A stretch of 64,000 nucleotides of DNA from Deltaproteobacteria bacterium (GCA_040218735.1 JAVJQW010000063.1:33345-97344); one strand, 5' to 3'. Shown: positions 4,017-36,603, counted from the stretch's first letter. Program-made: numbers and translations. The notes: a model not told the origin generated them from the letters alone.

Positions 4017-5210
4017 ATGCCGGTCGGTCGGGCAGGAAACGACGCGCTGCGCGGGGTCTCCCTCGCGGCGCTCGCGCCGGCTTCCTCGCGTCCGCGTTCG
4101 TCCGGCCGCGTCGGGCTGGGGCCGGTCGGCGACTTTCCGGATCCGCGCGCCGCCGGACGCGAGGATCTTCGAACGCTGCAGGCGATCGTCGACGGACACG
4201 TCTCGGCGCACGACGGGCTCGTCCGCATCAGTCAGTCCGGCGGTCTCCCGATCGTCGTCGATGGCAAGACGGTCTTCGTCTCCGACGCGAGCGAGACGCA
4301 GCACGTGGCCGGCGACTTCAACGGATGGTCACCCACCGCGATGGAGCGGCGCGGCGAGGTGCAGGTGCTCGAGGTCAAGGGTGAGCAGACCGGGCGCTAC
4401 AAGCTCGTGGCGGGATCGGATTGGCGCGCCGACCCGTGGTCGCGCCGCTACGCGTTCGACGACCACGGCGAGATCTCCATCGCGCAGCGACAGGGTGGGC
4501 GCGAGCTGTTGCGCATCCACGGTGTTTCCGGGTTCGGGCTCGCGCCGCGGACGGTGCGTTTGTTGGTGCCCGCCGGTGAGGCGACGCACCACCTCTACAT
4601 GCACGACGGGCAGAACCTCTTTCACCCGAACGCGATGTTCGGTGGGTGGCGCGTCGACGAGGCGGTCGGTGACAAGACGTTGGTCGTCGCGCTCGACAAC
4701 ACGAGTGATCGCATGGACGAGTACACCCACGTCCGCGACAAGATCGACGACCGGGAGATGGGCGGTCGCGGTGACGACTACGCGCGCCTCGTCGTCGATC
4801 TCGTGAAGCCGATGATCGAAAGCAACTTCGGTGCGCCGCGGAAGGTCGGCGTGATGGGTTCGTCGTTGGGCGGGTTGGTCTCGTTCCACATCGCGTCGAA
4901 GTACCCCAACACGTTCGACTTCGTCGGCGCGATGTCGCCGACGTTCTGGTGGGGCGGGAGCGACAGCATGCTCGAGCGTTACCGCGCGCAGCCGTTCATG
5001 CGGCGACCGAAGTTCTACGTCGACTCGGGCGGCTCGCCGGGCGGACGCGACAACCACGACGCCGCGAAGGAGATGGCCGGCATCCTCGACCAGGCCGGGT
5101 ACCGCTGGGAGCGCGACCTGTGGCACTGGCACGAGCCCGACGCGGCCCACAACGAGATGGCGTGGGCGCGCCGGGTGTGGCGTCCGTTGAAGTTGTTCGA
5201 AGGGCTGTGA
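4017..5210 (+). CDS. Alpha/beta-hydrolase (esterase, IroE/Fes-like) with an N-terminal CBM48/E-set-like domain
   Basis: VAGDFNGW and YKLV...WRADP (CBM48-like); LYMHDGQNLF; nucleophile GSSLGG; AAHNEMAW. The start could also be GTG 3993. Confidence 0.85.
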   Translation: MPVGRAGNDALRGVSLAALAPASSRPRSSGRVGLGPVGDFPDPRAAGREDLRTLQAIVDGHVSAHDGLVRISQSGGLPIVVDGKTVFVSDASETQHVAGDFNGWSPTAMERRGEVQVLEVKGEQTGRYKLVAGSDWRADPWSRRYAFDDHGEISIAQRQGGRELLRIHGVSGFGLAPRTVRLLVPAGEATHHLYMHDGQNLFHPNAMFGGWRVDEAVGDKTLVVALDNTSDRMDEYTHVRDKIDDREMGGRGDDYARLVVDLVKPMIESNFGAPRKVGVMGSSLGGLVSFHIASKYPNTFDFVGAMSPTFWWGGSDSMLERYRAQPFMRRPKFYVDSGGSPGGRDNHDAAKEMAGILDQAGYRWERDLWHWHEPDAAHNEMAWARRVWRPLKLFEGL

Positions 5211-5241
5211 CCGCGGCGCCGTGCGCGCGCGTGCGGGGGAT

Positions 5242-5913
5242 CTAGCGCTTCTTCGAGCCGCGCTTCTTGGCGGCCTTCTTCGCGGGGCGCTTCTTCGCTG
5301 CGGCCTTCTTCTTTGCGGCCTTCTTCGCGGGGCGCTTCTTGGCGGCCTTCTTCTTGGCGGCCTTCTTCGCGGGGCGCTTCTTGGCCGCGGCCTTCTTCTT
5401 GGTGGCCTTCTTCGCAGGGCGCTTCTTGGCCGCGGCCTTCTTCGCCGTCTTCTTCTTGGTGGCCTTCTTCTTCGCCGCCTTCTTCTTGGTGGCCTTCTTC
5501 TTCGGCGCGGCCTCGGGTGCCGCGGCCTGCGCCTCGGGCGCCGGCGCGCGATTCATCCAGATGCCGAACAGCGCGCCCGACGGATCGCTGAGGATCGCGA
5601 TCTCACCCATGACGGAGCCGTCCGGTCCCTTCACTTCCATGTGCGGCAGCAGCGCTTGGCCTCCGGCGCTCGTCGCGGCGGCGACCGTCTTGTGAACGTC
5701 GTCGACCTCGACGTACGGGAGCCAGTGGCTCGGCGCGTTCGGATCTTGAACGCCCTGCATACCGATGCCGGGATTCATCATCTCCTCGACCATCGTGTAC
5801 GCCATGCCTTCCATCGGCATGTCGATCGTCTTCCAGCCGAAGACCTTCGTGTAGAACGCCTTGGCGCCCGCGGCGTCCTTGGAGTTGAGCTCGATGTGAA
5901 CGAAGTTACCCAT
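5242..5913 (-). CDS. VOC/glyoxalase family protein with a histone H1-like Lys/Ala-rich C-terminal tail
   Basis: FVHIEL...AKAFYTKVFGW...WLPYVEVDDV...DPSGALFGIW, then about 85 aa of KKAAKK/KKRPAKK repeats. AAAGGA RBS upstream of ATG 5913. Confidence 0.9.
   Translation of the reverse strand: MGNFVHIELNSKDAAGAKAFYTKVFGWKTIDMPMEGMAYTMVEEMMNPGIGMQGVQDPNAPSHWLPYVEVDDVHKTVAAATSAGGQALLPHMEVKGPDGSVMGEIAILSDPSGALFGIWMNRAPAPEAQAAAPEAAPKKKATKKKAAKKKATKKKTAKKAAAKKRPAKKATKKKAAAKKRPAKKAAKKKAAKKRPAKKAAKKKAAAKKRPAKKAAKKRGSKKR
5262..5503 (-). repeat. Coding tandem repeat (KKRPAKKAA/KKAT units)
   Basis: Repeated gcggccttcttc and gcggggcgcttctt units on the + strand. Confidence 0.9.
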
Positions 5914-5977
5914 CACGAACCATCCTTTCGGACGCGCTCCATAGCACGACGTTGCGCGCGCCACATCTACCCCGATC

Positions 5978-6403
5978 TCAGTTCCCGATGACGACCTTCC
6001 GTCCCAGCTCGCCGCGGAGCCAGTCGGCCGCGCGCTCCGTTTGGTCGCCGGCCAGGATCACGTCCTCCCCCTCCACGGATCCGCCGCAGCCGAGGGTTCG
6101 TTTGAGTGTATGCGCGAGGGACTCGGTCGCCGCCGCGTCGAGGTCGAGCTGCGAGACGCGCGTGACCGTCTTGCCGCCGCGGCCCTTCCGCTCGCGCGCG
6201 ACCACGACCTTGCGACCCGAGCCACGGGGCTCCTCGGCCGCGTCCGGCGCGTCCGCCACGACCGGCGCGGGCGCTTCGGGCGTATCCGGGGCGTCGCCCA
6301 TCTGGGCGCGGAGCGCCGCCAGGCCGCCGAAGGCGTTGTTGAAAGGGCCCTTTTCGGGCGCTGTAGTGGAGGCGTCGACGCGCTCGCGCTTCTTCTTGGC
6401 CAC
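5978..6403 (-). CDS. yciH: Translation initiation factor SUI1/YciH
   Basis: ERKGRGGKTVTRV...LKRTLGCGGSVEG...LAGDQ is the SUI1 signature. Confidence 0.9.
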   Translation of the reverse strand: MAKKKRERVDASTTAPEKGPFNNAFGGLAALRAQMGDAPDTPEAPAPVVADAPDAAEEPRGSGRKVVVARERKGRGGKTVTRVSQLDLDAAATESLAHTLKRTLGCGGSVEGEDVILAGDQTERAADWLRGELGRKVVIGN

Positions 6404-6499
6404 GGACCGCGTTCGACCCCGAGGGGGATGGGTCGGTCAACCGTCGGACGAATTGACGGCACCCTCCGCAGCGGTCAGACTCCGCATCCTACCGCAATC

Positions 6500-9400
6500 A
6501 TGAGCGGATCCGTTCTCATCATCGACGGAGATCAGGCCTTCGCCGAAAGCGCGCAGAACGCGCTGGAAGCCGCCGGACTCACCGTCTGGGTTCGCCAGGA
6601 CGGCACCTTCGATACCGTCCGCGAGCTGCGTCCCCACGTGCTGCTGCTCAACGTCGAGCTGCCGCGGGGGTCGGGCTTCGCCATCTGTTCGCGGATCCGC
6701 CGCGACAAAGCGCTCCAGAAGATGCCGATCTTCCTCACGAGCGCGGAGGCGACGGCGGAGGCTCTGACGCGCCACGCCGCCACGGCGGACTCGGCGAACG
6801 AGTACGCGAAGAAGCCGATCCCGATCGACGACGTCGTGGACCGGGTCGGTCGCCTCATCGCGACGCGCCCCGCCGAAGAGGCGCCGACGAACGGCGCGGT
6901 GCCGCCGCCCATACCTCCTCCGCTCAAGAAGACGCGCGACGTCGAGGAGACGCCGCCGCCGCTGATGACGTCGCCGGAGCTGACGCCGATACCCACGAAG
7001 GGGCTCGGCTCGGACGAGCTGTGGCCGTCCGCGACCTACGACGAGCAGATGCGGAGCGCGCTCGCGCAGGGGGAGGAGTCGCTCCCGAAGGGGCGGGTGT
7101 CGCCCGAGGAGCGGTTGCAGGCGCTGCGCGCGCTGGTGAAGCAGCACGAGACGCAGCGGCGCGGCTTCGTCGAGACGTGGCAGCAGGCGAACGAGCGCGG
7201 GCAGGAGCTCGCGCGTCGGATCGTCGGGCTGACGAGTGAGCTCGAGAACCGCACCGCGCGCATCGAGGAGCTCGACGCGCAGCTCGCCGAGACGCAGGAG
7301 CGCCTCGACACGGTCGGCTCGGAGTTTCAGACCTTCCAGGACGAGATCACACGCATCTTCCGGGAGAAGGACGCCGAGGAGTCCAACCGGGCGTCCTATC
7401 TCAAGGAGCTCGAAGAGACGAAGGCCGCGCAGGAGGCTCAGCTTCAGCAGGCGTTCGAGCGGCAGACGGACGACGAGCGTCGGCTGGAGATCATCCAGGA
7501 GGACCTCGACCTCCTGCAGAACGAGAAGGACAGCGCCGTCGCGACGCTCGCGGAGGTCGAGGAGGCGCTGGCGATCGCGCGGGCGGACATCGAGGAGCGC
7601 GACAAGCGCCTGGAGATGACGAACGCGATCGCGACGGAGCGCGCGGAGGAGGTCTCCGAGCTCCGCGATCGGATCGACGAGCTGGCGTTCGAGCACACAC
7701 GCGAGCGCTCGAAGCTCGAGGACGCGCACGAAGAGAAGATCGAGGCGCTGCTCTCGGAGCACGTCTCGACGATGGAGCGCGGTCGCGCCGAGCAGGAGGC
7801 GTCGCTCGCCGACGCCGAGTCGCGCTACGAGCAGATGCAGGCGCAGCTCGAAGCGGCGAAGGAGGACGCGGTCGCGCAGCTCGAAGCCGACCACGCCGCC
7901 GCGACGCACGCCGCGGCCGAGCGGCACGCCGCCGAGATCGAAGCGCTCGAGGCGTCGCACGAGGATGCGTTGGGGGTCGCGGCGAACGCGCGGCTGGAGC
8001 TGGAGGGTGAGAACGCCGAGCTCCGAACCCGGACCGAGGAGCTCGAGACGGCGTACGCGCGCGAAGCCGAGGAGCACCGCCAGACCAAGGCGCAGCTCGA
8101 AGCCGAGCTGGAGGCCGAGCGCGAAGAGGTCGAGCAGCTCCAGGCGAGCCTCGACCGGGCGACGAAGAACGAGATGGAGCTCGAGCACCGCCGGGCGACG
8201 CTCGAAACGAAGCTCGCCGAGGTCTCTCGTGCGCGCGACGAGGCGGAGGTTTCCCTCGCGGCGACGCAGGCAGAGCTGGAGCAATCCACGGAGGAGGGGG
8301 CGGCGACGTCCGAGCGCCTCCATTTGGTGGAGGCCGAGCTCGACACCGCGCAGGCGGATCTCTTCGAGCGGAGCTCTCGTGTCTCGCACCTCGAAAAGCA
8401 GCTCTCGGCTCTGCAGGCGCGCGCGACCGAGCTCGATACGGCGCTGCGGGTCAGCGAGAAGGCGCTGAAGACGGCCGAGAACCAGGGGCGCGCCGCGGCG
8501 ACGAAGGCGGCGGAAGCCGAGGCCGAGCGCGATGCGCTCGAGCAACAGGTCGAGCTGCTCGAGGAGCAGCACACCCGCCTCGAGGACAAGGTTCGTGACA
8601 CGGAGACGATGCTCGAGCACGAGCGCGCTCGGCTCACGAAGGCCGAGGATGGGCTGCGGAAGGCGCGCGATCACGTCGCCGCGCACGAGGAGATGGCGGA
8701 CCGCCTGAAGGCGGAGCTGCACGAGGAGCGCGAGGCGCAGAGTGAGCTGGAGGCGTCGGTCGCGGCGCTGCAGGGCGACCGGTCCTCGCTGTCGGCGGAG
8801 GTCGAGGAGCTCGCGAGCAAGAGCACGGACCTCGCGCAGATCGTCGAGCGCATCGACCGGGAGAAGGCCGACCTGGAGGCGCAGCTCGACGCCGAACGGT
8901 CCGCGTCCGACGCGCAGGTCGCGCAGCTCCAGCAGCAGGTCGAGGCGGCCACGGCGCGGTTCGAGCAGACCGAGATGGCGCGGCGCGAAGTCGCGCGGGC
9001 GGCGGACGAGGCCGAGAAGCAGCTCGCGAAGGAGCGTGCGGCGCGCGAGAAGTTGCAGCGCGCGCTCGAAGAGGAGCGCGGGGCGCGACACGATCTCGTG
9101 GAGACGTTGGACTCTTCGCGGTCCACGCAGTCGGAGCTGGAGATCATCGTCGAGACCGAGACGAAGTCGCGCGAGGAAGCCGAGCAGGCGCTCGCGGCGA
9201 TGTCGCAGCAGCGCGAGGCGCTGGAGGAGGCGCTGTCGCGCAAGGAGGCGGAGCTGTCCGAGGCGTACGCGGGGCAGACGGATGCGCAGCGTCGGTTCGA
9301 GTCTTCGGTGCAGGATCGTCAGGACATGCTCTCGGAGCTCACGTCGAACCTCGAGCGCGAGCGCAAGCGTGCGGAGACGCTCGACCTGACGGTCACGAGT

Positions 9401-10261
9401 CTGAACGAGGAGCTGGAGATCCACCGCGCGCAGGCGCAGGGGCTCAGCCAGAGCGCGGATCGCGCGGAGCAGGCCAGCTCGGATCTGTCGGCGCAGCTCG
9501 AAGCTTCGCGGCGGACGCTCAAGACGCTCGAGAAGAGCGAGCAGTCGTTGATGAAGCGGGTGTCGGATCAGGAGGACGCCCTCAACGAGTGGCGCTTCGC
9601 GACGGAGAGCATGAAGGGGACGCTGTCGGCGCTGCAGCGCGATCTCGAGACGGCGGAGGCGATGGCCGACGACACCGCCGTCGGCAAGAACTACGGGCAG
9701 CTGCTCGAGCGCATCGCGCGCGCGGTATCGATGTGTATGGAGACGCTCGAGGAGAGCGACGAGTCGATGGAGCCGCCGGTCCTGGACGCGGCGATCCTGC
9801 CCCCGTCGAAGCCCGCCGCCGCGATGCCCGAGCTCGATCTCACGGACGACGACGTCGACATCCCGATCTACACCGGGGAGGTGGAGCCGCTGGATCCGCT
9901 CGCGGATCTCGAGGCGGACGGCCTCCACATCGTGCAGCGCACGCCGGTCACGCCGCTGCCCACGCCGGCTCCGGCGCCCGCGCCGCGCAAACACACGACG
10001 CGTCGCCCGGCGCCGGCCACGAAGCAGGGCGGCAGCGCCGCGGAGCCGTTCGCGCAGTTGATGGCGGAGATCGCGGAGGTCGACGACAGCACGGCGCCGC
10101 TGCCGGACAACCCGGGCTTCGGGGTGTCGTTCGACGGCGAGCAGACGTCGACGGACACGCGAGCGGTGACGTCGAAGTCGGCTCAGATTCCGATCGTCGA
10201 AGAAGAAGACGAAGACGAGCGGAACGTCACCGAGATCATCAACATCAACGAGCTGGAGTAG
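6500..10261 (+). CDS. Pseudo-receiver domain plus very long coiled coil (FrzS/AglZ-like myxobacterial polarity/motility scaffold)
   Basis: REC fold (VLIIDGD...LLLNVELP..SGFAICSRI...EYAKKP) with Asn at the phospho-Asp position, about 900 aa of E/A/L/R-rich heptads, and an acidic tail. Confidence 0.8.
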   Translation: MSGSVLIIDGDQAFAESAQNALEAAGLTVWVRQDGTFDTVRELRPHVLLLNVELPRGSGFAICSRIRRDKALQKMPIFLTSAEATAEALTRHAATADSANEYAKKPIPIDDVVDRVGRLIATRPAEEAPTNGAVPPPIPPPLKKTRDVEETPPPLMTSPELTPIPTKGLGSDELWPSATYDEQMRSALAQGEESLPKGRVSPEERLQALRALVKQHETQRRGFVETWQQANERGQELARRIVGLTSELENRTARIEELDAQLAETQERLDTVGSEFQTFQDEITRIFREKDAEESNRASYLKELEETKAAQEAQLQQAFERQTDDERRLEIIQEDLDLLQNEKDSAVATLAEVEEALAIARADIEERDKRLEMTNAIATERAEEVSELRDRIDELAFEHTRERSKLEDAHEEKIEALLSEHVSTMERGRAEQEASLADAESRYEQMQAQLEAAKEDAVAQLEADHAAATHAAAERHAAEIEALEASHEDALGVAANARLELEGENAELRTRTEELETAYAREAEEHRQTKAQLEAELEAEREEVEQLQASLDRATKNEMELEHRRATLETKLAEVSRARDEAEVSLAATQAELEQSTEEGAATSERLHLVEAELDTAQADLFERSSRVSHLEKQLSALQARATELDTALRVSEKALKTAENQGRAAATKAAEAEAERDALEQQVELLEEQHTRLEDKVRDTETMLEHERARLTKAEDGLRKARDHVAAHEEMADRLKAELHEEREAQSELEASVAALQGDRSSLSAEVEELASKSTDLAQIVERIDREKADLEAQLDAERSASDAQVAQLQQQVEAATARFEQTEMARREVARAADEAEKQLAKERAAREKLQRALEEERGARHDLVETLDSSRSTQSELEIIVETETKSREEAEQALAAMSQQREALEEALSRKEAELSEAYAGQTDAQRRFESSVQDRQDMLSELTSNLERERKRAETLDLTVTSLNEELEIHRAQAQGLSQSADRAEQASSDLSAQLEASRRTLKTLEKSEQSLMKRVSDQEDALNEWRFATESMKGTLSALQRDLETAEAMADDTAVGKNYGQLLERIARAVSMCMETLEESDESMEPPVLDAAILPPSKPAAAMPELDLTDDDVDIPIYTGEVEPLDPLADLEADGLHIVQRTPVTPLPTPAPAPAPRKHTTRRPAPATKQGGSAAEPFAQLMAEIAEVDDSTAPLPDNPGFGVSFDGEQTSTDTRAVTSKSAQIPIVEEEDEDERNVTEIININELE

Positions 10262-12402: not shown

Positions 12403-14802
12403 GTGACCGGTTCCCCACCTCACGGTTCGGGCCCAGGGGGCCCGCGTGGACCTGGTCCATCCCAACTGGATGCGGAGCGCGCACTCTTCGCGGAGCCCGA
12501 CAGCGTCCCCGAGTACGAGAGCGTGAGTCAGGGCGTGATGCCCTCGCGCGTCGGAGACTACGACATCGTCGGACGTTTGGGGGGCGGCAGCATGGCCGAC
12601 CTCTACATCGCCCACAAGGTGTCGCAGTTCGGCTTCGTGCGTCGCGCGGTCATCAAGACCGTGAAGCGATCACGCTCGGACTACAAGGAGCTGCAAGCGC
12701 TCTTGCTCGACGAGGCGCGCGCAACGGCGTGCTTCGACCACCCGAACCTGATCGCGCTCTACGACGTGGGGGAGTCGGACTACGGACTGTACCTCGCGTT
12801 GGAGTTCGTCGAAGGGTCCGACCTCCGCCGGGTGAACAGCAAGCTCCGCCAGCGCAAGGAGGCGTTGCCGTTCGAGCTGGCGTGTTACGTGGTGTCCGAA
12901 GTCCTGCGCGGCGTGCACCACGCGCACACGGCGACCGGACCGGACGGTCAACCGCTCGAGATCATCCACCGCGATGTGAACCCGTCGAACGTGCTCGTGG
13001 CGTCGAGTGGGCACGTGAAGCTCGCGGACTTCGGCGTGGTGCGAATGCGGGAGCGTATTCAGCCCAAGACGGAGCCGGGGTTGGTGAAGGGCAAGTATGC
13101 GTACCTCGCGCCGGAGTACATCGCGGGCGAGCCGTGCAGCGTGCAGACCGACATCTACGCCGCGGGGATCATGTTGTTCGAGCTGCTCTCGGGGCGTGAG
13201 TGTTTCAGTGGGAACACCGCCTACGAGGTGATGTGGAAGATCGTGAACAAGGGCGTTCCGATGTACCGCCTCATCCGCGAGGGCGTGCCGGAAGACCTTC
13301 AGCGCATCGTGCAGCGCGCGACGAGCATGGTCCCGGAGCGTCGGTACAACACGGCGCAGGACATGGCGAACGCGCTCGAGGCGTGGCTGATGCGGAGCGG
13401 TCGTCACGCGACGCCGTGGGTGCTGTCGGTGTTCTTCAACCGTCACGCGTTGTTCCCGGACCGCACCACCGAGCCGCCGCCTCCGCCGCTGCAACGCAGC
13501 TTGCCATCGAAGGTGCCGAAGCCGGTGATGCGCCCCGAGGCTGCGTCCGAGCAGCGGCAGATTCACGAGCAGATGCAGACGTCGAGCGCGGCGCGGTCGG
13601 TGGACGGGTCGCTCACGCCCGCGCCGGATGTCGCGTTTTCGTTCCCCGGCGACTTCGACGTGCCGATCCTCGCGCCCGATCTCGCCGAAGCGCCGACGGA
13701 CTCGTCGATCGCACGCCCCGCGGAGCTCGACGAAGTGGCGCGTCCGTCGGTGCAGGACCACCGCTCCGGTCCGATGCGGGACGCGGATCGTCACTTCGCG
13801 CCGACGCCGCGCCCGCAGGTGTCGACGTCGTCCCCGGGTGAGGAAATCGACGTTCGCGCGAACGGGATGAACATCCCGGTGGGGCCGACGGTGCCGAACT
13901 CGCCGCCGCCCCACATGGGTTCGCACGACGCGCCGCCGCCACGCCTCCCGCCGCGTTCGGCGTCGACGCCCGGTCAGATCGCCGCGTCCGAGCTCAAGAC
14001 ACCCGCCGCGATTCGCACCGGTCCGGACGTCAGCGATCTCGCGGTGCGGCCGCCGCCTGGCTCGGGCTCGGCGGGTCGCGAAGACTCACCGCGCAAGCTC
14101 GTGTCGCGCATCGACGAGAGCGGGCCTCAGGAGCCGGTGCTCGGGCGGCCCAAGAAGAAGAAGAAGCCGAAGGCCGAGGTCCCCGAGGGGGTCCTCAAGT
14201 CCGGCAAGCTCGAGGACGCACCCGCGGCGATCGTGCTCCGTCGTCTGGTCGACGCGCGCGCCGAGGGGGTCGTCGAGTTCAGGTGTGGACTGATCTGGAA
14301 GCGCGTCTTCATCGCGAACGGCGCGCCGACGGGCATCACTTCGAACATGGGGATGGAGCTGATCGGCGAGCACCTCGTGAAGGCGCGGCAGATCTCACGC
14401 AGCGCGCTCGACCGTGCGCTCGCGGCGTCGGAGCGCTCCGGTCAGCCGCTCACCGTCACGTTGATCGAGCAGGGCGCGATGGATCGCGGCACGCTCGAGG
14501 ACGAGCTCGGCAAGAACCTCGCGGCGCGGCTGCAGGAGGTCCTCGAGTGGCGCTGGGGCACCTTCGAGTACAAGGCGGAGTCGGTCGCGAACACGGACAT
14601 CCTCCCGCGCCTCGATCTCGACGCGCTGCTGCGAGAGGCGACCGAGAACCGCGTCAACGAGAGCGGCGACTTCGACCCGGCGGAGTCCGGCGACGACAAC
14701 CCCCAGAAGAAGCTCAAAGAAGCGCTTCGGGTCGCGCGGTCCATCTCCAAGAGCGGCGGCAAGGGCCGGGTCGAGCGGCCCTGGCGCAACAGCAAGCCCT
14801 GA
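12403..14802 (+). CDS. Hanks-type Ser/Thr protein kinase with Pro-rich linker and C-terminal DUF4388-like domain
   Basis: LGGGSMA, VIK, HRDVNPSN, DFG, YLAPE and DIYAAG motifs; C-terminal ...IGEHLV...LQEVLEWRWGTFEY. No TM segment seen. Confidence 0.92.
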   Translation: MTGSPPHGSGPGGPRGPGPSQLDAERALFAEPDSVPEYESVSQGVMPSRVGDYDIVGRLGGGSMADLYIAHKVSQFGFVRRAVIKTVKRSRSDYKELQALLLDEARATACFDHPNLIALYDVGESDYGLYLALEFVEGSDLRRVNSKLRQRKEALPFELACYVVSEVLRGVHHAHTATGPDGQPLEIIHRDVNPSNVLVASSGHVKLADFGVVRMRERIQPKTEPGLVKGKYAYLAPEYIAGEPCSVQTDIYAAGIMLFELLSGRECFSGNTAYEVMWKIVNKGVPMYRLIREGVPEDLQRIVQRATSMVPERRYNTAQDMANALEAWLMRSGRHATPWVLSVFFNRHALFPDRTTEPPPPPLQRSLPSKVPKPVMRPEAASEQRQIHEQMQTSSAARSVDGSLTPAPDVAFSFPGDFDVPILAPDLAEAPTDSSIARPAELDEVARPSVQDHRSGPMRDADRHFAPTPRPQVSTSSPGEEIDVRANGMNIPVGPTVPNSPPPHMGSHDAPPPRLPPRSASTPGQIAASELKTPAAIRTGPDVSDLAVRPPPGSGSAGREDSPRKLVSRIDESGPQEPVLGRPKKKKKPKAEVPEGVLKSGKLEDAPAAIVLRRLVDARAEGVVEFRCGLIWKRVFIANGAPTGITSNMGMELIGEHLVKARQISRSALDRALAASERSGQPLTVTLIEQGAMDRGTLEDELGKNLAARLQEVLEWRWGTFEYKAESVANTDILPRLDLDALLREATENRVNESGDFDPAESGDDNPQKKLKEALRVARSISKSGGKGRVERPWRNSKP

Positions 14803-14848: not shown

Positions 14849-15397
14849 ATGGCCGACGACCGCGCATATCGAATCCTCGTTACGTTCGACGCCGAAGCCG
14901 AGCGCTTCACCGCACGGGTCCCCGAGCTCGGCGTGTCCGCGAAAGGTGAGACGCGGAGCGACGCCATCGCGAGCTGCGAGACGGAGATCGAGGCGCGCGT
15001 CGCCGAGGCCGCGAGCGCCTCCGAGTCGCTCCCCGCGCCGGCCGACGCGACCGAACCGGAGCCGGGCGAGATCACGATGAAGCTCGCCGGCCCGCTGATG
15101 AAGGACCTCGCCTATCACGCGGCCCGCAACGAGATGGAGGTCGACGAGTTCGCGCGGCAGCTTCTGTTCCGAGCGATCGGCGCGCTCCACGGCGAGGCCC
15201 CGCCCCGTCGCTCGCGCCCGAAGCGCGAAGCCGACGAAGAGCAGCAGCCCGACAACAACGAGCGCGGCCGCGGCCGCGGTCGCGGGCGAGGGCGAGGGCG
15301 TGGTCGCAACGAGGGTTACCGGGGCGACATGGACGACCAGGCGAACTTCCTCGCGTACGTGCGGGATCAGGAGAAGGGCGGCCGCGGTCGTCGTTAG
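14849..15397 (+). CDS. HicB-like antitoxin-fold protein (HicB domain plus RHH) with an RG-repeat tail
   Basis: YRILVTFD...FTARVPEL-GVSAKGETRSDAI (HicB N-domain), ITMKL...LAYHAA...(RHH), and an RGRGRGRGRGRGRGR tail. Confidence 0.75.
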   Translation: MADDRAYRILVTFDAEAERFTARVPELGVSAKGETRSDAIASCETEIEARVAEAASASESLPAPADATEPEPGEITMKLAGPLMKDLAYHAARNEMEVDEFARQLLFRAIGALHGEAPPRRSRPKREADEEQQPDNNERGRGRGRGRGRGRGRNEGYRGDMDDQANFLAYVRDQEKGGRGRR

Positions 15398-15402
15398 GGT
15401 CG

Positions 15403-18042
15403 TCAGGCACGCACGCGGAGCGAGCGCAGGAGTCGTCGCTTCGCGACGTCGATCGAGATCAGCCGGCCGCGATCGTCTCCGACGAGCAGCAAGTTGCCTT
15501 GCACGCGGACGCACGCGTTCGTGGACTCCTGGAGGGAGATGCTCGCCACGCGTTCCTCCTGGGTGTCGGCGTAGACGAGGACCTGGCAGCCGAGCGGGGT
15601 GCGCGCGACGACGGCGCACCAGCCCGGGGCCACCGCGACACGTGCCCCGATCGTCGACGGTGCCAGGTCGATGTAGCGCGACGACGTGTTCGTCCCGTGT
15701 GAGGTGTCGAGGCGGAACTCGCGGGTGAGGGTGACCTCACCGTCGCCGCCGGCCTCCTCCCGGGCGAGGGTGACGACTTCGCCGGTCGGGAGGAACGCGT
15801 CGCGTCCGACCACGCCGAACGGCACGCCTGGGTACTCGATGCGGCTCCGCAAGGTGAGTTGCGGGAGCTGGTAGCGCCACACCTCCGCGGTGCCGGACGC
15901 GAGCGGCGCGACCGCGGCGAGGACCTTGTCGGAGCGCACGATCGCGCGAGCAGCGCAGTCCGGGCTGCGCCACGTCGACGTGAAGCGGCGGGCCGTCGCG
16001 TCGATCGCGTCGAGCCCCTGGCCGCTGTTCACGTACCAGGTCCACCCGTCGAACGAGCTCGCTGCCGTGGACAGCTCGGCCTCGCACCAGTGTTTCGACT
16101 TCTGACGAACCACGTCGAAGCGCGCGAGGCGCCACACGTCGCCGCGCCGCGCCGCGACGATGGCGCGGTGACCGCCGTCGGACGGGACGATGTGGTGCGT
16201 GGGCTCGTCGAAATGCTTGGCGACGCGACCGTCGCGCGTGAGGAGTAGCGCGCCGTTCTCGCCGAGGCCGACGAGGAAGCGCCCGTCGGGGAGGAGCACG
16301 ACGTCCTCGATCCCCCAGGTCGTCGCGTCGGAGGCGTCGACGTACAGGTCCACGGGACCCGACGCCACCGCACGTTTTTCGCGGCGGGGTCGATCCGCTT
16401 CGAGGACGCTGTCCCCTGAGAGGCGGCCCAGCGCGCGGTAGGTCGTCGCGTCGGCGTGCGCGCCGAGGGCTTCGTCGCGGTAGAGCGATCGGAGGGCCGG
16501 CCTCGCAAGCACGCGGAGCGGTGGGGTGGCCTTGGCGCGGGAGAGCGTCGCGCGGAACGTGTCGCGCGCGGGTGCGGTGTCGGGGCCGTCGTCGTCGAGC
16601 AAGGCGAGCGCGCGGGCACGCAGTCGTTCGTAGTCTTCGGGGATCAGCTCCAGCGCACGAACGATCATGCGGGCGCCGGGCGGTCCCCCCACCGCGACCG
16701 CGGCGGCGATCCATCGGTGCGCGATGTGGCGTCCCTCCTCGACGGGCCACGCCGTGTCGACGGCCCCGACGAAGTCGCCAGCGTCGGCGAGCGCGTCGGC
16801 CCACAGGAGTCGCAGCGCGTCGGCGGCGGAGCGATCCGAGCGTTGGAGGCGGAGTACGGCGCCCTCGAAGGCGTCGTAGCGTTTGGCGATCCGAACTGCG
16901 CGGTCGTAGCGCTTCGCGAGGAACCACTGGCGAACGATCAAGTCCGGCGCGAGCGACCGCGCCTCGGCGAGCTCCGCGGCTTTGACGAAGCGATCGTGGT
17001 TCTCGAGGAGCTGCACCGCCTCCTCGTCCTCCTGCAGGAGCTCCGCGAGCACGAACGCGGCCTCGTCGATGCGGTCCTGGCGGACGAGCCGTTCGACGAG
17101 CCGCCGGTAGCGCTCGCGGAGCAGCTCGAACACGTCGAAGCCGACCACCATCGAACGCCCGCCTCCGCCGAGCCCGCCGCTGCTGATGCGGAGGTCGTTG
17201 CGTGGTTTAGGGAGACCGAAGCTCGGGCGCGACAGCGCGTCGCCCAGGCTCTTGCTCAAGGGGATTGCGTGGCGCAGCGCCTCGTCGTCCTGGTCGTCGA
17301 GCATTCGCAGGAGGCGACGCAAGTAGTCCGCCTGACGCCGACCGAAGAGGCGATGCAGGCCCGACGCAAACGTGAGCGCGGCGAGGGCGTTCTCGATCCG
17401 TGCGACGAACCGGCGCCACGCGCTCGGAGGCTCGGCCGTGGATGCACGCGGTTCTTCGCGGAACGCCTTCTCCGCGCTGCGCAGCGCGCGCCACCAGCGC
17501 GCCCACCACGGGAGCCGCTTCGAGGCGCCGGCCTCGGAGGTCAGCGCCGCGAGGACGGCGTCGCGCTCCTCGGTCGCGTCCGGCACGTCGAGGACCTCGC
17601 GTGTTTCGGCCTGCCTCGGCGCGACGTAGCCGGGCGGAGCGGGGGCCTTGCCGAGGGACTCGGGTTCGATCGTCTCGAAGTCGGTCAGGTCGAACCAGTC
17701 GTCGATCGCGATCGAGGTCGCGACGTCGAGGTCCGTCTCTGCGACGCGTCCGCCCGCGAAACACGCCGCGACGTCGGGGGGCGGTGGGTCGAGATCGGGC
17801 GAGGCGACGAGGCCCTGCTCCGTGCGCACGAAGGGGAGTCCGGGCACGTTCTGCGTTCGCATCGAGCGCGGCGGAATCAACGTGACGAAGTACGTGCCGC
17901 GAACCTCGAGGAGTCGGGAGTGCAGCGTCCACACCGCGAGCACCCGCTCGCGCGCGGCGCGTTCGCCGACGAGGCGCGGATCGACGGCGAGCGCGGCGAC
18001 GTCGATGCGGCCGCGGTGCACCAGGCGCTCGACACGTTTCAT
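15403..18042 (-). CDS. bpX6-domain protein of the MoxR-vWA-beta-propeller ternary system (N-domain, alpha-solenoid, C-terminal propeller)
   Basis: HRGRIDVAALAVDPRLVGERAARERVLAVW, LRHAIPL and AAFVLAELL...AAELAE, with a beta-rich C-terminus. ATG 18042 overlaps the upstream stop. Confidence 0.75.
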   Translation of the reverse strand: MKRVERLVHRGRIDVAALAVDPRLVGERAARERVLAVWTLHSRLLEVRGTYFVTLIPPRSMRTQNVPGLPFVRTEQGLVASPDLDPPPPDVAACFAGGRVAETDLDVATSIAIDDWFDLTDFETIEPESLGKAPAPPGYVAPRQAETREVLDVPDATEERDAVLAALTSEAGASKRLPWWARWWRALRSAEKAFREEPRASTAEPPSAWRRFVARIENALAALTFASGLHRLFGRRQADYLRRLLRMLDDQDDEALRHAIPLSKSLGDALSRPSFGLPKPRNDLRISSGGLGGGGRSMVVGFDVFELLRERYRRLVERLVRQDRIDEAAFVLAELLQEDEEAVQLLENHDRFVKAAELAEARSLAPDLIVRQWFLAKRYDRAVRIAKRYDAFEGAVLRLQRSDRSAADALRLLWADALADAGDFVGAVDTAWPVEEGRHIAHRWIAAAVAVGGPPGARMIVRALELIPEDYERLRARALALLDDDGPDTAPARDTFRATLSRAKATPPLRVLARPALRSLYRDEALGAHADATTYRALGRLSGDSVLEADRPRREKRAVASGPVDLYVDASDATTWGIEDVVLLPDGRFLVGLGENGALLLTRDGRVAKHFDEPTHHIVPSDGGHRAIVAARRGDVWRLARFDVVRQKSKHWCEAELSTAASSFDGWTWYVNSGQGLDAIDATARRFTSTWRSPDCAARAIVRSDKVLAAVAPLASGTAEVWRYQLPQLTLRSRIEYPGVPFGVVGRDAFLPTGEVVTLAREEAGGDGEVTLTREFRLDTSHGTNTSSRYIDLAPSTIGARVAVAPGWCAVVARTPLGCQVLVYADTQEERVASISLQESTNACVRVQGNLLLVGDDRGRLISIDVAKRRLLRSLRVRA

Positions 18043-19826
18043 GCGCCGACCCTCGCGGCGGAGTAGGACCGAATGATGCGCGCGCGCTGCGCGTCGATCA
18101 CGACGATCTGATCGTTGGCCAGGTGAAGGACGACGAGGTTCCTGAAGTACGCGGCGCCGACGAACGGGACCTCCTCCGTCCACAGCTCGTAGGGCGGCAT
18201 GTGTGCGCCGTACACCAGCACGCGCGTTCGTTCGGCGTTCGCCGCGATGACGCGCGCCTCGATCTGCCGGCCGCCCACCGCGAAGGCGCCGATGGCCTCT
18301 TCCGCGCTGGGCACCGTGATCGGCCCCCAGTCCGAGGTCGTCCGTCGGTGGAACCAGTTGGCCTCCCAGCGGTTCGCGGATCCGATGGGGTGGAACGCGT
18401 CGCCCTGGCGCATCACGACGATCGCGTGGTTGCGGCAGAAGAAGACCTCGCCGGTCGGGAACGGGAGGTACCAGTCGGGTTGGCGTGTCCGGCTCCAAGG
18501 TTGGAGGCGCGACTTCGTCGCGTCGCGCCCGCGGAGCGTCCACAGACGACCGGCGCGCCGCGCGGCGCCCAGGACGTCCGTGGCGATCCTTTCGATCGAT
18601 CGCAGCTGCAGGTCGATCGCGAAGACGTCGCTCTCCAACTGTACGAAGCAGTAACCGTGCACGTGGAACATGCCGGCGATCGGCGCGTCGGCGCCGGGAG
18701 GCATGAGGGTGGTCTCACCGCGTTCGAGCTCCAGCTGATCGATGAGCTGCCCACGTTTGTTGCGCACGCTGAGGACGGGTTGCAGGCCGTCGACGCTCAG
18801 CACCCAGTAGCGTTTGTGCCACCAACCCACCGCGACGATCGGCCCGCGCTGCGCACCGAGGTGCCGAGGCTCGGCGTGGTGCTCGAGCGGTTTGTGGGGG
18901 AGCCCGAGCGCGAGCACGCCGGCCTGCGTGCGGAGGAACAGGCGCCGCCCGCCGTCGGCGATCGCGACGCCGCCGCCGGTCGTCGCCATCGCCACGCGGA
19001 CCGGCGCAGGCTTTCGAACCTCGAAGGGATCGCGGAGCAGTCGCACACAAACGTTTGGGTGCGGGAGCTCGAATCGCACCGGGTCCTTCGGGGCGAGGCG
19101 AACGTCGAGCGCGCGGTCGCCGATCTCCATCGACTCCACGACTTCGACGGTTTGACCGAGCCGCGCGAGCTTCGCCGTTCGGTTCCCGCCGACGAACCAC
19201 AGGTCGTCGAGTCCGTCGTCCCCGGGGTCGAGTCGTTCGAGGAACGCATCGACGTCCTCCGGCTTCCCCTCGTGCGTCGACCGCCCCTGTAGCAGGTTGA
19301 GCACCGACTGGGCGTCGAGGTGTTCGAACGTTCGCCGCTCCGGGTCCTGCAACACGCCCCACCTGAACGCGACGCCGGCGAGCCGCGCGCGGCGCGCCAA
19401 CACGACCAGCGTCGCGAGGTGGACGAGGCGCGGTGCGCCGATCTGATGAGGCCCCGCGTCGAACAGCGCGATCGAGTGCAGCGACGCCGAGGGCGCGCGA
19501 CGTTGAAGCTCGAGGAACGTGTGCTCGGTCATCGCAGCGCGACGCAGGAACTCGAGCGGCGCCTCCTCCGCGATGGCCCACTCGGAGAGCAGCAGACGCT
19601 CATACGAACCGCGGCGCGTGAGCCCGCCGAAGCCGTCGGGGGTGCCGTCGCCTTCGCGCGTGCTTCGTTTCAATGGACCGAACGTCGCGGCGAGGCGTGG
19701 GAGCCAAGGGAGCAGCGTGTGTACGACGTCCGGCGGGAACATCGACAGCTCGTCCTCCCACCCCCGCAACGCGGGCGGGAGCCTCGTACTCGGCGTGGCC
19801 GGACGCCGAGCGGATTCGCGATTCAC
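18039..19826 (-). CDS. vWA-like plus beta-propeller component of the MoxR ternary system
   Basis: PDGFGGLTRRGSYERLLLSEW...EFLRRAA..EH.F, then ALFDAGPHQIGAPRLVHLA (degenerate vWA/MIDAS region), with a beta-rich C-half. GTG 19826 overlaps the upstream TGA. Confidence 0.7.
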   Translation of the reverse strand: MNRESARRPATPSTRLPPALRGWEDELSMFPPDVVHTLLPWLPRLAATFGPLKRSTREGDGTPDGFGGLTRRGSYERLLLSEWAIAEEAPLEFLRRAAMTEHTFLELQRRAPSASLHSIALFDAGPHQIGAPRLVHLATLVVLARRARLAGVAFRWGVLQDPERRTFEHLDAQSVLNLLQGRSTHEGKPEDVDAFLERLDPGDDGLDDLWFVGGNRTAKLARLGQTVEVVESMEIGDRALDVRLAPKDPVRFELPHPNVCVRLLRDPFEVRKPAPVRVAMATTGGGVAIADGGRRLFLRTQAGVLALGLPHKPLEHHAEPRHLGAQRGPIVAVGWWHKRYWVLSVDGLQPVLSVRNKRGQLIDQLELERGETTLMPPGADAPIAGMFHVHGYCFVQLESDVFAIDLQLRSIERIATDVLGAARRAGRLWTLRGRDATKSRLQPWSRTRQPDWYLPFPTGEVFFCRNHAIVVMRQGDAFHPIGSANRWEANWFHRRTTSDWGPITVPSAEEAIGAFAVGGRQIEARVIAANAERTRVLVYGAHMPPYELWTEEVPFVGAAYFRNLVVLHLANDQIVVIDAQRARIIRSYSAARVGA

Positions 19827-20215
19827 GTCAGCGCCTCCAGACGGGTGCGCGCGATCGGGCGAAGTTTGTCGAGGCGAACGATGCGCCCCGGGAGCACGGC
19901 GGCGTGTCGCGCTTCGATCAGCGCGTCGAGCACGGCCGGAGAGACGCTGGGCGCCTCCCGCGTGGGCACCAGGAGGCGCGGTGCGTCCGGGTGGCGTCCG
20001 AGGTACTGAACGCCGTCGACCCAGGGGAGGTCTTCGCCGGCGCCGCACACGATGATGAGCCCCGGCGCGACGACGCCTTCGAGCCGCTCGAGGTCGACGT
20101 CGCGGACCCCGAGCAGGCGCGACAGCAGGCGGGCGACGACCTCGCCCTCCGCCCACGCGCCGCACGGCACCAGCGGCTCCGGGCGCGGCGCCCACGTGAT
20201 TCGCATCGGCTTCAC
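19823..20215 (-). CDS. bpX5-domain protein of the MoxR ternary system
   Basis: ITWAPRPEPL...LPWVDGVQYLG...APRLLVPT...P. GTG 20215 overlaps the ATPase TGA; alternative start ATG 20206. Confidence 0.75.
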   Translation of the reverse strand: MKPMRITWAPRPEPLVPCGAWAEGEVVARLLSRLLGVRDVDLERLEGVVAPGLIIVCGAGEDLPWVDGVQYLGRHPDAPRLLVPTREAPSVSPAVLDALIEARHAAVLPGRIVRLDKLRPIARTRLEALT

Positions 20216-21342
20216 GGCAGCTCGATCGCCGGCGCGACCTCCTCCACGATCGCGGTGCGCACCTTGGCGACCGCGTCGGGCATCGCGTCCGGCGCGAACG
20301 CCGCGTCGATCTCCCGCGCGACGCCTTCGAGCTTCAGCAGCCAGCCCTCGCGTTCCTTCGGATCCTCCGGCGGCGCGTCGAGGAGCTGCTGTCCGTCGCG
20401 GGCGATGCGCTCCGCGCGAGCGAGCGGCCCGAGGGAAGCGTGCTCCGCCGCGGCGGCGAGCGCGGAGCTCTTGGACGCTTCGAGCAGCTCCGCAATCGCG
20501 TCCCGCGCGATCTGCTGTCCGGCGAGCGAGGGCACCGCGTAGACGATCGGCCACAGGTCCGCGGTGGTCGGTGTGGTGCGACCGTCGAGCGCGGCGGCGG
20601 CGGCGACGAGGCGCTGGAGCTTCACGGCGCGTCGGTCGGAGAGCAAGATGCCGTTCTTCCGGAGCGCGCGGATCGCGTGAGCGATCTCGCTCCGCACGCC
20701 GGACAGATCCGCGGCGCGCGCGGTCTCGGCGAGTGCGTCGACGTGCGCTATCTCGATCCCTTCGATCGACTGCGACTCGAGCGCCCACCCACTCTCGAGC
20801 AGATCCTCGATCGAGGGATCCGGGATCCCGTCCACGAAGAACCGCACGAGGAAGCGGTCGGCGAAGGCGTCGAGGGACTCGTCGTCGGGGAGCGCGTTCG
20901 TCGCGCCGACGCAAACGCGGAGCGGCACGTCGATCGCGGTGTGCCCACGCACGAAGCGCCGCTCGTTGAGGAGCCCGAGCAACGTGTTGAGGATCGCCGT
21001 CGAGCCCAGGAACACCTCGTCGAGGAACGCGATCTCGGCCTCGGGGAGCATCCCCGTCGTCTCCGTCTCGACGACCCCCTCGCGGAGCTTCCGCAGATCG
21101 ACCGGGCCGAAGATCTCGTTCGGCTCGGTGAACCGCCCGAGGAGGTATTCGAAGTACCGCCCGCCCAGCGCCTTCGCGACGCGACGCACCGCCTCGCTCT
21201 TCGCCGTCCCGGGGGGCCCGACGACGAGCACGTGCTCGCGCGCGATCGCCGCGAGCGCGACGAGCTCGACGAGCGCCTCGCGGTCGATGAGGTTACGACT
21301 GGCGCGGCCGAGGGCACCGGCGACGAGATCCGCTGAGTTCAG
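20212..21342 (-). CDS. MoxR/RavA-type AAA+ ATPase
   Basis: Walker A GPPGTAKS, FEYLLGRFTEPNEIFGP, Walker B FLDEVF, LNERRF and DRF. The start is uncertain; the ORF stays open to 21435 but would overlap the divergent gene. Confidence 0.9.
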   Translation of the reverse strand: MNSADLVAGALGRASRNLIDREALVELVALAAIAREHVLVVGPPGTAKSEAVRRVAKALGGRYFEYLLGRFTEPNEIFGPVDLRKLREGVVETETTGMLPEAEIAFLDEVFLGSTAILNTLLGLLNERRFVRGHTAIDVPLRVCVGATNALPDDESLDAFADRFLVRFFVDGIPDPSIEDLLESGWALESQSIEGIEIAHVDALAETARAADLSGVRSEIAHAIRALRKNGILLSDRRAVKLQRLVAAAAALDGRTTPTTADLWPIVYAVPSLAGQQIARDAIAELLEASKSSALAAAAEHASLGPLARAERIARDGQQLLDAPPEDPKEREGWLLKLEGVAREIDAAFAPDAMPDAVAKVRTAIVEEVAPAIELP

Positions 21343-21375
21343 AATGTCCCGAGGGTAGCAGTCGAGCCGACGACC

Positions 21376-36602: not shown

Positions 36603-36603
36603 T

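Follow-up and report, generated by a model that had tools for sequence, protein, structure and literature searches.

The closest described relatives of the locus studied here are the MoxR-vWA-beta-propeller ternary systems, subsystem 4 of Kaur, Burroughs, Iyer and Aravind (2020, eLife 9:e52696). That paper describes a P-loop GxxxTAKS as often present in this MoxR clade, a vWA component that strictly bears a C-terminal beta-propeller of 'about four blades', and a third component with a membrane-spanning segment; the equivalent of the N-terminal region of gene 4 (see below) is suggested there as a possible output module. Every characterised MoxR-vWA pair in its list is a chaperone for assembly or insertion. 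Among the MoxR-vWA conflict systems, the beta-propeller ternary ones are understood least, having no recognisable effector. The class is known from computation alone, and literature searches returned no experiment on this subsystem, whether on binding, ATPase activity or phenotype, as had been stated in an earlier note made from the sequence of the window, the whole 64,000-nucleotide stretch of DNA that was analysed.

Comparable gene sets have been reported elsewhere. According to PMC9677677, Pseudomonas syringae clade 2b-a carries a ravA / bpX5 / '6ND4' / bpX6 cluster within a region of genomic plasticity that is found in one clade only. Esr, described in bioRxiv 10.64898/2026.09.08.750141, is a threat-sensing pathway of oral Actinobacteria that includes MoxR and vWA proteins.

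Assignment of the locus and comparison with described systems

Judging by its sequence, the locus belongs to the bpX5/bpX6 subtype of the MoxR-vWA-beta-propeller ternary systems, and it adds no new kind to the class. The earlier note had named it a MoxR-bpX5-vWA-bpX6 ternary system, and this family assignment was right on every testable point. As in the systems outlined by Kaur et al., the bpMoxR, bpX5 and bpX6 components are recognised by HMMs, the P-loop is of the GxxxTAKS type, a candidate divergent vWA domain is fused to a propeller, and in the third component a distinctive domain at the N-terminus is followed by helical (TPR-like) repeats and then by a propeller. The components keep a conserved gene neighbourhood, a conventional effector is absent, and the host is a bacterium of multicellular habit. 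Unlike that description, both propellers model as complete and seven-bladed, there is no membrane-spanning segment, the system is single-copy in Myxococcota with a neighbourhood conserved within families, and the canonical vWA signature is undetectable with the tools used.

The FtsH ternary systems (subsystem 3 of Kaur et al.) share the MoxR clade with GxxxTAKS, and their ivWA domain aligns with the N-terminal domain of gene 3, including the motif before the first strand; however, the locus encodes no FtsH-type double AAA+ component. RavA-ViaA and CoxD-CoxE likewise pair a MoxR-family AAA+ ATPase with a vWA-type partner, but the present system also requires two more proteins and has no linked client genes for respiration or cofactors. 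Unlike in those pairs, the partner here has a propeller and no MIDAS serines, and the ATPase does not reach the RavA cut-off. The P. syringae cluster has the same four genes in the same order and a third gene recognisable only via structural similarity of its propeller, whereas the chromosomal context of the present locus is stable. Esr also combines MoxR and vWA proteins with a divergent propeller-bearing sensor, but there the sensor is secreted and forms a filament located at the surface, and kinase, phosphatase and FHA proteins belong to the pathway, whereas all four proteins here are predicted to be cytoplasmic and contain no such domains. A paralogous locus on contig C39, with a bpMoxR-type ATPase, a canonical vWA protein and a secreted Ig-repeat/propeller lipoprotein, looks nearer to Esr.

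Organisation of the operon

The locus (15403-21345, minus strand) comprises four co-oriented, tightly coupled genes with open frames, encoding the MoxR ATPase, bpX5, a vWA-like/propeller protein (gene 3) and the bpX6 protein (gene 4). Their parts are as follows.

20212..21345, minus strand: MoxR-type AAA+ ATPase of the bpMoxR clade, about 377 aa (Pfam, motifs); start uncertain
19823..20215, minus strand: small bpX5 protein, 127 aa from ATG 20206 or 130 aa from the overlapping GTG
19497..19826, minus strand: gene 3, residues 1-110, helical N-terminal region (72-sequence alignment, AF2)
19011..19496, minus strand: gene 3, residues 111-272, predicted vWA-like alpha/beta domain without MIDAS serines (AF2, hhalign)
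18039..19010, minus strand: gene 3, residues 273-595 and stop, predicted 7-bladed beta-propeller (model, 28 strands)
17668..18042, minus strand: gene 4, residues 1-125, bpX6 alpha+beta N-terminal domain (Pfam; AF2 pLDDT about 90)
16378..17667, minus strand: gene 4, residues 126-555, predicted helical linker, then alpha-solenoid (AF2)
15403..16377, minus strand: gene 4, residues 556-879 and stop, predicted WD40-like 7-bladed beta-propeller

The three stop-start overlaps described in the earlier note are all present in the sequence: GTGA at 20215-20212 between MoxR and bpX5, GTGA at 19826-19823 between bpX5 and gene 3, and ATGA at 18042-18039 between genes 3 and 4. The note had also held that longer shadow ORFs conceal the true starts. 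The long ORFs covering the locus (407, 363, 718 and 1046 aa) indeed enclose shorter genes: GC3 is 0.87-0.92 in the proposed gene cores (0.89 in bpX5) and 0.49-0.51 in the upstream extensions of genes 2-4, which are 26-36% arginine, while overall GC content is even along the locus; the lengths of database gene calls point the same way. The system was taken to be complete, and the four-gene operon proved real, with the same gene order in relatives. Scans of the locus returned no sigma-70-like promoter, and a single terminator-like site, no more than expected by chance. A long template/variable repeat pair, the mark of a diversity-generating retroelement, was absent.

The MoxR ATPase and bpX5

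The product of the first gene matches Pfam bpMoxR (PF20030) at 9.5e-85, with 283 bits against a 27-bit cut-off, and AAA_5 at 3.4e-25. The P-loop GPPGTAKS occupies residues 42-49 and the Walker B motif is LDE. In an alignment of 37 sequences K48, D108, E109 and R163 are invariant and S235, D236, R237 and R238 nearly so, and the catalytic motifs are intact. The match to the NCBIfam RavA model NF010054 is partial (5.3e-44) and its 151 bits fall far under the 681-bit cut-off, so the ATPase is RavA-like, as first proposed, and not RavA itself.

The start of this gene is less certain. No ATG, GTG or TTG lies near the position predicted from homologs, and the sole canonical start is GTG 21435, which would give 407 aa. 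ATT at 21345 aligns with ATC in a same-genus genome (ATY in both), where an in-frame TGA is found five codons upstream of the aligned ATC; the codon at 21342-21340 is CTG. Residues 2-374 of the query align to residues 7-379 of the top MoxR representative. By homology, the start may be ATT 21345 or CTG 21342.

The small protein of the second gene, identified in the earlier note as bpX5, matches Pfam PF19921 at 3.6e-23 (the bpX5 and bpX6 definitions used throughout are those of Pfam). Across 16 aligned sequences the motif LPWxDGxxY is invariant, as are W5, R8, P11, L60, P61, W62, G65, Y68 and P81. A database gene call (P0245) gives a protein of 127 aa from ATG 20206, five bases past the MoxR stop, and the N-termini of homologs agree with it. 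Because of this call and these N-termini, the GTGA at the MoxR/bpX5 junction may not be a used start, and ATG 20206 seems more likely than the overlapping GTG.

The vWA-like/propeller adaptor

Gene 3, for which an exact 595-aa database record exists (P0005), has no match in Pfam. Its AF2 model (mean pLDDT 82) comprises an alpha/beta N-terminal domain and a seven-bladed propeller. The N-terminal region carries the most conserved motif of the protein, with the consensus GEPDGFxGLxRRGSYERLLLSEW...PDEFxRRAAMGEH; in 72 sequences G50, G65, R72, G73, R77, L78, L79 and W83 are invariant, as are A86, E92, F93, R95, R96, A97 and E101. Part of this motif is modelled at low confidence (pLDDT below 50 at residues 60-62 and 67-77). 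The order of elements in the alpha/beta domain, beta-alpha-beta-alpha-alpha-beta-alpha-beta, is compatible with vWA. At the end of the first strand stands D123-A-G125-P126 in place of the DxSxS of a canonical vWA; D123, G125 and P126 are invariant in the 72 sequences. Thus only the first Asp of the MIDAS is kept, and the metal-binding serines are absent.

The earlier note had spoken of a degenerate vWA domain with a propeller. The propeller is supported by the model and by fold searches, whereas the vWA domain is supported only indirectly, by an hhalign alignment of the N-terminal domain with ivWA (PF19997; probability 77%, E 1.9e-5, 102 columns; reversed control 0.3%). This match centres on the conserved N-terminal motif stretch ahead of the first strand. 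The PF19997 and PF19915 HMMs did not match gene 3 at E up to 1. In searches for a canonical vWA, Pfam at E up to 1 returned only weak propeller families for all 72 family members, the PDB profile search returned WD40 chains only (best E 0.0012), and hhalign against 33 vWA domains from the genome that holds the window reached 0.4-0.5% probability, the same as the reversed control, in a test that gave no signal for ivWA itself either. Fold searches with the whole model reported only the propeller; 6nd4 appears in the Foldseek list. The Protein Atlas clusters nearest to the N-terminal domain are bpX0 (0.89) and ivWA (0.87), which serve as leads only because all are below 0.9. Both the sequence and the model favour an adaptor in which a MIDAS-less, ivWA-like domain is fused to a seven-bladed propeller.

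The bpX6 protein

Gene 4, described in the earlier note as a bpX6 solenoid plus propeller protein, matches Pfam bpX6 (PF19922) at 1.4e-18 over residues 5-165, and both solenoid and propeller are modelled (mean pLDDT 85). The linker at residues 126-300 is helical and modelled at low confidence; the solenoid at 301-555 has about 16 helices (H302 to H549), mostly with pLDDT above 90, and is the most conserved part of the protein. Relatives at 90-94% identity are also 879 aa long. The maximum 19-residue Kyte-Doolittle mean of 1.15 indicates no membrane segment in gene 4, and no membrane segment or signal-like hydrophobic stretch was seen in the proteins of the system. Protein Atlas gave no usable match for the bpX6 N-terminal domain once PF19922 was excluded, and fold searches with the whole model reported the propeller only. 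A recent duplication of the two propellers is unsupported, since hhalign compares them at 2.8% probability. No enzymatic effector was found in the four proteins with Pfam, PADLOC and NCBIfam, in line with the absence of a visible nuclease or other enzyme noted before.

Distribution, neighbourhood and divergence

The family was found in 44 of the 201 genomes of the phylum, in only three sampled families, and each of the 44 carries a single copy; it was not found in the other 157. Matches of the bpX6 search include ones named Myxococcus xanthus and Corallococcus. The order MoxR-bpX5-vWA/propeller-bpX6 is kept in 18 of 18 relatives' loci (16 complete, 2 cut by contig ends), four of which (L030, L064, L066, L067) have other genes inserted. 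The neighbourhood is conserved within families, and across at least five genera of one family, with family-level synteny involving esterase, MatE and two-component genes. Of 7 loci, 6 have the esterase on the MoxR side and 5 have MatE; Sua5 adjoins the bpX6 gene in three loci of the window's own family. Among 90 flanking ORFs scanned there was no integrase, transposase or defence gene, and no conserved candidate client gene linked across families was found. One match occurred in 72,556 plasmid records and none in 50,697 phage records. The four proteins matched no known or candidate defence protein in PADLOC-DB 2.0: the best ATPase match had E 0.0026 (mad8, ATPase P-loop region), the sole match of the bpX6 protein E 0.012 (REase_II), and bpX5 and gene 3 had none. 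The system is an ordinary member of its class, inherited in the chromosome of large-genome myxobacteria, and in this lineage it seems to behave as a fixed set of chromosomal genes, unlike a mobile defence island.

Identity with a same-genus relative is 84% for MoxR, 66% for bpX5, 61% for the bpX6 protein and 51% for gene 3; syntenic flank genes are 59-83% identical. Within gene 3 the propeller is 46% and the vWA-like domain 62% identical, and within gene 4 the propeller 52-55% and the solenoid 74-79%. With respect to the closest relative, the gene 3 values are 86% and 90% for propeller and vWA-like domain. In these alignments, the non-ATPase parts diverge faster than MoxR. The suggestion that the propellers are variable sensors is favoured to the extent that they, too, outpace MoxR, but the gradient appears moderate and not hypervariable.

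Proposed function and alternatives

Our favoured reading, which we regard as probable, is a cytoplasmic four-protein machine of the ternary class acting as an ATP-driven latent switch. MoxR would form a hexamer that, with ATP, remodels the gene 3 adaptor, probably gripping its invariant and flexibly modelled N-terminal motif; this motif is also found in the FtsH-type ternary systems, whose MoxR belongs to the same clade. Gene 4 encodes a large scaffold of bpX6 domain, alpha-solenoid and WD40 propeller, and the two propellers together with the solenoid may provide ligand- or partner-binding surfaces. An ATP-dependent rearrangement of the latent complex could then expose or release the bpX6 N-terminal domain or a bound client, with a non-enzymatic output (sequestration, assembly or signalling). 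Complex predictions of MoxR, residues 1-275 of gene 3 and residues 1-130 of bpX6, with bpX5 as the scored partner, gave 0.62, 0.66 and 0.63; partner swaps gave 0.00 and 0.00, and a MoxR swap 0.57; these scores are not counted as evidence for or against binding. The most likely role, following the proposal of Kaur et al., would be to sense an invader or non-self in social myxobacteria. The anti-phage or non-self machine of the earlier note is backed by the faster propellers and the patchy distribution among families, but the system is single-copy and syntenic and lacks a mobile or defence context. With its near absence from plasmids, its absence from phages and no flanking defence or mobile genes, this role can only be inferred, by analogy.

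It is unlikely that the locus encodes a lineage-specific housekeeping chaperone, whose MoxR/vWA-like pair would help a cellular complex to mature or assemble outside any conflict, on the model of RavA-ViaA, CoxD-CoxE and Mg-chelatase, with propellers and solenoid as client-recruiting scaffolds. The chaperone nature of the characterised pairs listed by Kaur et al., the single copy per genome, the neighbourhood shared across genera, the lack of effector, mobile-element or defence genes nearby and the scarcity in plasmids and phages all suit it. Nevertheless, the searches detected no such system in 157 of 201 genomes or in most families, and whatever it serves is dispensable; the non-ATPase components outpace the flanking genes (gene 3 at 51%, against 59-83%), no linked client gene is conserved across families, and the P. 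syringae cluster occupies a plastic, clade-specific region. That the locus is a decaying or non-functional remnant is highly improbable: the missing canonical MoxR start would fit, but the four frames are open with coding-type GC3, the catalytic motifs are intact, an ATY codon also occupies this place in the same-genus ortholog, and the AF2 models are confident.

By analogy with Esr, the propellers might instead sense a cytoplasmic ligand and feed Ser/Thr phospho-signalling or transcription, which we hold to be rather improbable. Esr offers a precedent, from experiment, for threat signalling through MoxR/vWA proteins. Two bpX6 relatives (P0202 and P0210, among 120 listed) have a PP2C phosphatase domain between solenoid and propeller, and one PP2C-bearing relative lies in the same four-gene operon (L069), but the P0210 match is weak (2e-5), no kinase or FHA gene adjoins the PP2C variant, and the window's proteins contain no phosphatase, kinase or FHA domain by Pfam. 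A Ser/Thr kinase gene does stand between genes 3 and 4 on the same strand in L030, a locus of the window's family; however, this adjacency was set aside as a clue and is likely due to chance, because that genome of 11.6 Mb has at least 151 Pkinase matches (150 of 290 candidates scored).

Significance

The locus is a clean, complete and soluble four-gene example from a lineage with cultivable relatives that have orthologs, and the comparative picture supplies concrete hypotheses for a first experimental study. Single copy, synteny, non-mobility, the moderate divergence of the propellers and the rare PP2C domains all bear on the label 'conflict system'. There is a small chance that the system is a vertically inherited cytoplasmic ATP-gated sensor of social myxobacteria with a signalling output, not an abortive-infection device. 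If so, Ser/Thr dephosphorylation would be an ancestral or alternative read-out preserved in the rare PP2C-bearing variants, and the recognition of foreign or damaged-self protein would feed a regulatory programme, for instance in development, kin behaviour or stress, and not killing.

Operon Layout and Gene Starts

Four co-oriented genes on the minus strand, extending from position 15403 to about 21345, form the operon in the window, which has a GC content of 70% and comes from a host genome of 11.6 Mb in 70 contigs. The coupling of the four genes through GTGA, GTGA and ATGA junctions, as reported in the earlier note, was found in the sequence.

The operon and the genes convergent on its end
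12403-14802, plus strand: Ser/Thr kinase with a C-terminal DUF4388
14849-15397, plus strand: small Arg/Gly-rich ORF
15403-18042, minus strand: gene 4, bpX6 protein
18042-18039, minus strand: ATGA, junction of genes 3 and 4
18039-19826, minus strand: gene 3, vWA-like and propeller protein
19826-19823, minus strand: GTGA, junction of genes 2 and 3
19823-20215, minus strand: gene 2, bpX5
20215-20212, minus strand: GTGA, junction of genes 1 and 2
20212-21345, minus strand: gene 1, MoxR AAA+ ATPase

The mechanical ORF list contains longer frames of 407, 363, 718 and 1046 aa. The upstream parts of the frames of genes 2-4 are Arg-rich (26-36%) and have a GC3 of 0.49-0.51, against 0.87-0.92 in the proposed gene cores, so the long frames are shadow ORFs hiding the real starts, as the earlier note stated. 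The database lengths agree: gene 3 has an exact record of 595 aa, and the relatives of gene 4 with 90-94% identity are 879 aa long. The named homologs found with genes 3 and 4 are mostly myxobacterial.

The GTGA at 20215-20212 is present in the sequence, but ATG 20206, from which the database calls a 127-aa bpX5, fits the Pfam model and a 16-sequence alignment better than the GTG of the overlap; with either start codon, bpX5 begins no more than 5 nt from the MoxR stop. Judging by the alignments, a rare ATY codon is the probable start of MoxR. No ATG, GTG or TTG occurs in the window at the start predicted from homologs, the codon at 21342 is CTG, and residue 7 of the best MoxR representative aligns to query residue 2. 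An ATY Ile codon is kept at the aligned start position, as ATT in the window (21340-21345 region) and as ATC in the same-genus genome (G001, locus L021), where the ATC aligns exactly with ATT 21345 and an in-frame TGA lies five codons upstream. The only canonical alternative is GTG 21435, and in G001 the extra sequence that this start would include shows no coding conservation.

Assignment of the Operon Proteins

The earlier assignment to the MoxR-vWA-beta-propeller ternary systems proved correct, as seen from the Pfam matches of gene 1 to bpMoxR (9.5e-85) and of genes 2 and 4 to bpX5 (3.6e-23) and bpX6 (1.4e-18), and from the gene order in relatives. The description of gene 1 as a RavA-like AAA+ protein also holds, with a score of 151 bits against NCBIfam RavA, under the cut-off of 681 bits. 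MoxR is expected to be an active ATPase: it has the P-loop (GPPGTAKS), and in 37 sequences Lys48, Asp108-Glu109 and Arg163 never vary and Ser235-Asp236-Arg237-Arg238 hardly do. None of the four proteins contains a membrane-like hydrophobic segment, and PADLOC matched no known defence family among them.

Eighteen loci from other genomes were compared, 16 of them complete and two truncated at the end of a contig, and every one has the order MoxR, bpX5, gene 3, bpX6. Extra genes are inserted in four loci, three of which (L064, L066 and L067) thereby lack the tight MoxR-bpX5 coupling of the window.

Insertions in the operons of relatives
L064, between MoxR and bpX5: three small genes, one for a lipoprotein, one for another secreted or membrane protein and, on the opposite strand, one for an AHSA1/SRPBCC protein
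L066, same genus as L064, between MoxR and bpX5: three small genes, the lipoprotein and AHSA1/SRPBCC protein being clear
L067, between MoxR and bpX5: one gene for a lipoprotein-like (secreted) protein
L030, window's family, 4822-6651, minus strand, the operon strand, between gene 3 and bpX6: 609-aa Ser/Thr kinase gene

Homologs of gene 3 were found in 12 of 41 related genomes, the window's own counted, and in 8 of 19 other genomes of the same family. With the bpX6 HMM, 44 of 201 genomes from the phylum gave a single match each, a figure that likewise includes the window's own genome; the matches in other genomes fall in only three families (8/19, 33/54 and 2/2).

N-Terminal Domain of Gene 3

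Direct tests of the degenerate vWA domain proposed for gene 3 found no counterpart among canonical vWA domains: no vWA was matched in Pfam or by PDB profile, and hhalign against 33 vWA domains of the same genome gave a probability of 0.4-0.5%, the same as the reversed control. The Pfam HMMs of bpX0 (PF19915) and of ivWA (PF19997), the ‘vWA’ of FtsH ternary systems, did not reach gene 3 at E values up to 1. A profile-profile comparison in which residues 1-272 were set against 27 aligned ivWA domains from the phylum, however, yielded a probability of 77% and an E value of 1.9e-5 over 102 columns, against 0.3% for the reversed control. Within the match lie an invariant motif (consensus GEPDGFxGLxRRGSYERLLLSEW...PDEFxRRAAMGEH) and, after it, the first strand, which ends in D123-A-G125-P126, where canonical vWA domains have DxSxS; D123, G125 and P126 are invariant in 72 sequences. 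By its Protein-Atlas features, gene 3 is nearest to the bpX0 and ivWA clusters, both under the 0.9 mark, and the predicted model has a strand/helix order compatible with a vWA core.

Because of the ivWA profile signal, gene 3 is assigned by sequence as a homolog of the divergent ‘vWA’ of FtsH ternary systems, a relationship proposed in section 22 of Kaur et al. 2020 (eLife 9:e52696), and its vWA fold is putative. The ivWA domain itself gave no signal against canonical vWA in the same hhalign test.

Divergence of the Propellers

The identity to the same-genus genome is 84% for MoxR, 66% for bpX5, 61% for the bpX6 protein and 51% for gene 3, while the syntenic flank genes show 59-83%. The propellers are the fastest-evolving parts within their proteins (46% versus 62% in the vWA-like domain of gene 3; 52-55% versus 74-79% in the solenoid of gene 4); against the relatives nearest to the window, which share about 90% identity overall, the difference is slight, at 86% versus 90%. 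No relatedness of the two propellers to each other was detectable, and no repeat pair of the diversity-generating-retroelement type is present. The propellers, read in the earlier note as variable sensors, thus diverge faster but are not hypervariable: the identity values point to lower constraint on presumed binding surfaces.

Variants and a Second bpMoxR Locus

In two of the 120 bpX6 relatives listed, P0202 and P0210, a PP2C phosphatase domain is inserted between solenoid and propeller. P0210 (locus L069, 9001-12639) belongs to a standard four-gene operon in a publicly available Archangiaceae metagenome-assembled genome. Kaur et al. 2020 state in section 22 that these systems have no conventional effector, with no mention of the PP2C insertion. 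Kinase neighbours were considered as a clue to the output and found uninformative, because the genome contains at least 151 Pkinase matches.

The window's own genome encodes a second bpMoxR-clade ATPase (contig C39, 400890-406938, locus L068; PF20030, 5e-65), also with GPPGTAKS. Next come genes for a canonical vWA protein (VWA_2, CoxE-like) and for a lipoprotein of 1077 aa that combines five He_PIG Ig repeats with a propeller-like C-terminus. By its genes, this layout resembles the surface sensor arrangement of Esr, a threat-sensing pathway of oral Actinobacteria.

Genomic Context

The stop codons of the operon and the Arg/Gly-rich ORF are 5 nt apart, and this ORF and the DUF4388 kinase are syntenic in the same-genus genome (75% and 83% identity). 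The other flanks are a divergent acyltransferase and an amidohydrolase; synteny of the window's flanks is limited to that genome. Within the window's family, Sua5 adjoins bpX6 in three loci. In the family with 33/54 positives, seven loci from six genera have neighbours in common: on the MoxR side an esterase (6/7) and MatE (5/7), and on the other side response-regulator and PAS histidine-kinase genes in several loci. Among the 90 flank ORFs scanned there was neither an integrase nor a transposase, nor any recognised defence gene. Searches with bpX6 by tblastn gave no match in 50,697 phage records and one in 72,556 plasmid records, in a 5.7-Mb replicon. The picture is that of an operon inherited vertically in a fixed chromosomal place, different from the Pseudomonas syringae copy, which PMC9677677 describes as clade-specific and places in a region of genomic plasticity.

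Elsewhere in the window, the region 35538-39728 (plus strand) holds another MoxR gene, of the classical type, ahead of genes whose VWA_2 matches fall at 36889-37200 and 37821-38168. It is apparently a BatA-type MoxR/DUF58/vWA cluster with no relation to the operon; there is a third VWA_2 match on the minus strand, at 42674-42880. A 1438-aa protein (5945-10261, plus strand) contains a response-regulator receiver domain and long coiled-coil-like regions with tropomyosin-type matches.

Functional Interpretation

Kaur et al. 2020 defined the system computationally and termed it enigmatic, and the 2021 follow-up describes further ternary systems but brings nothing new to the beta-propeller one. No experimental study of the beta-propeller subsystem was found in the literature searched, which covered few subscription-journal papers. 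According to the Esr preprint (bioRxiv 10.64898/2026.09.08.750141), a related MoxR/vWA/propeller module was found experimentally to signal threat in Actinobacteria.

The earlier reading of the operon as an anti-phage or non-self recognition system is retained in part: a conflict role is plausible, but the genomic context in this lineage gives no support to it. The operon is a complete and unremarkable representative of a kind known computationally and experimentally untouched, in which MoxR would drive the remodelling of a propeller/solenoid sensor complex whose output may be non-enzymatic or signalling.
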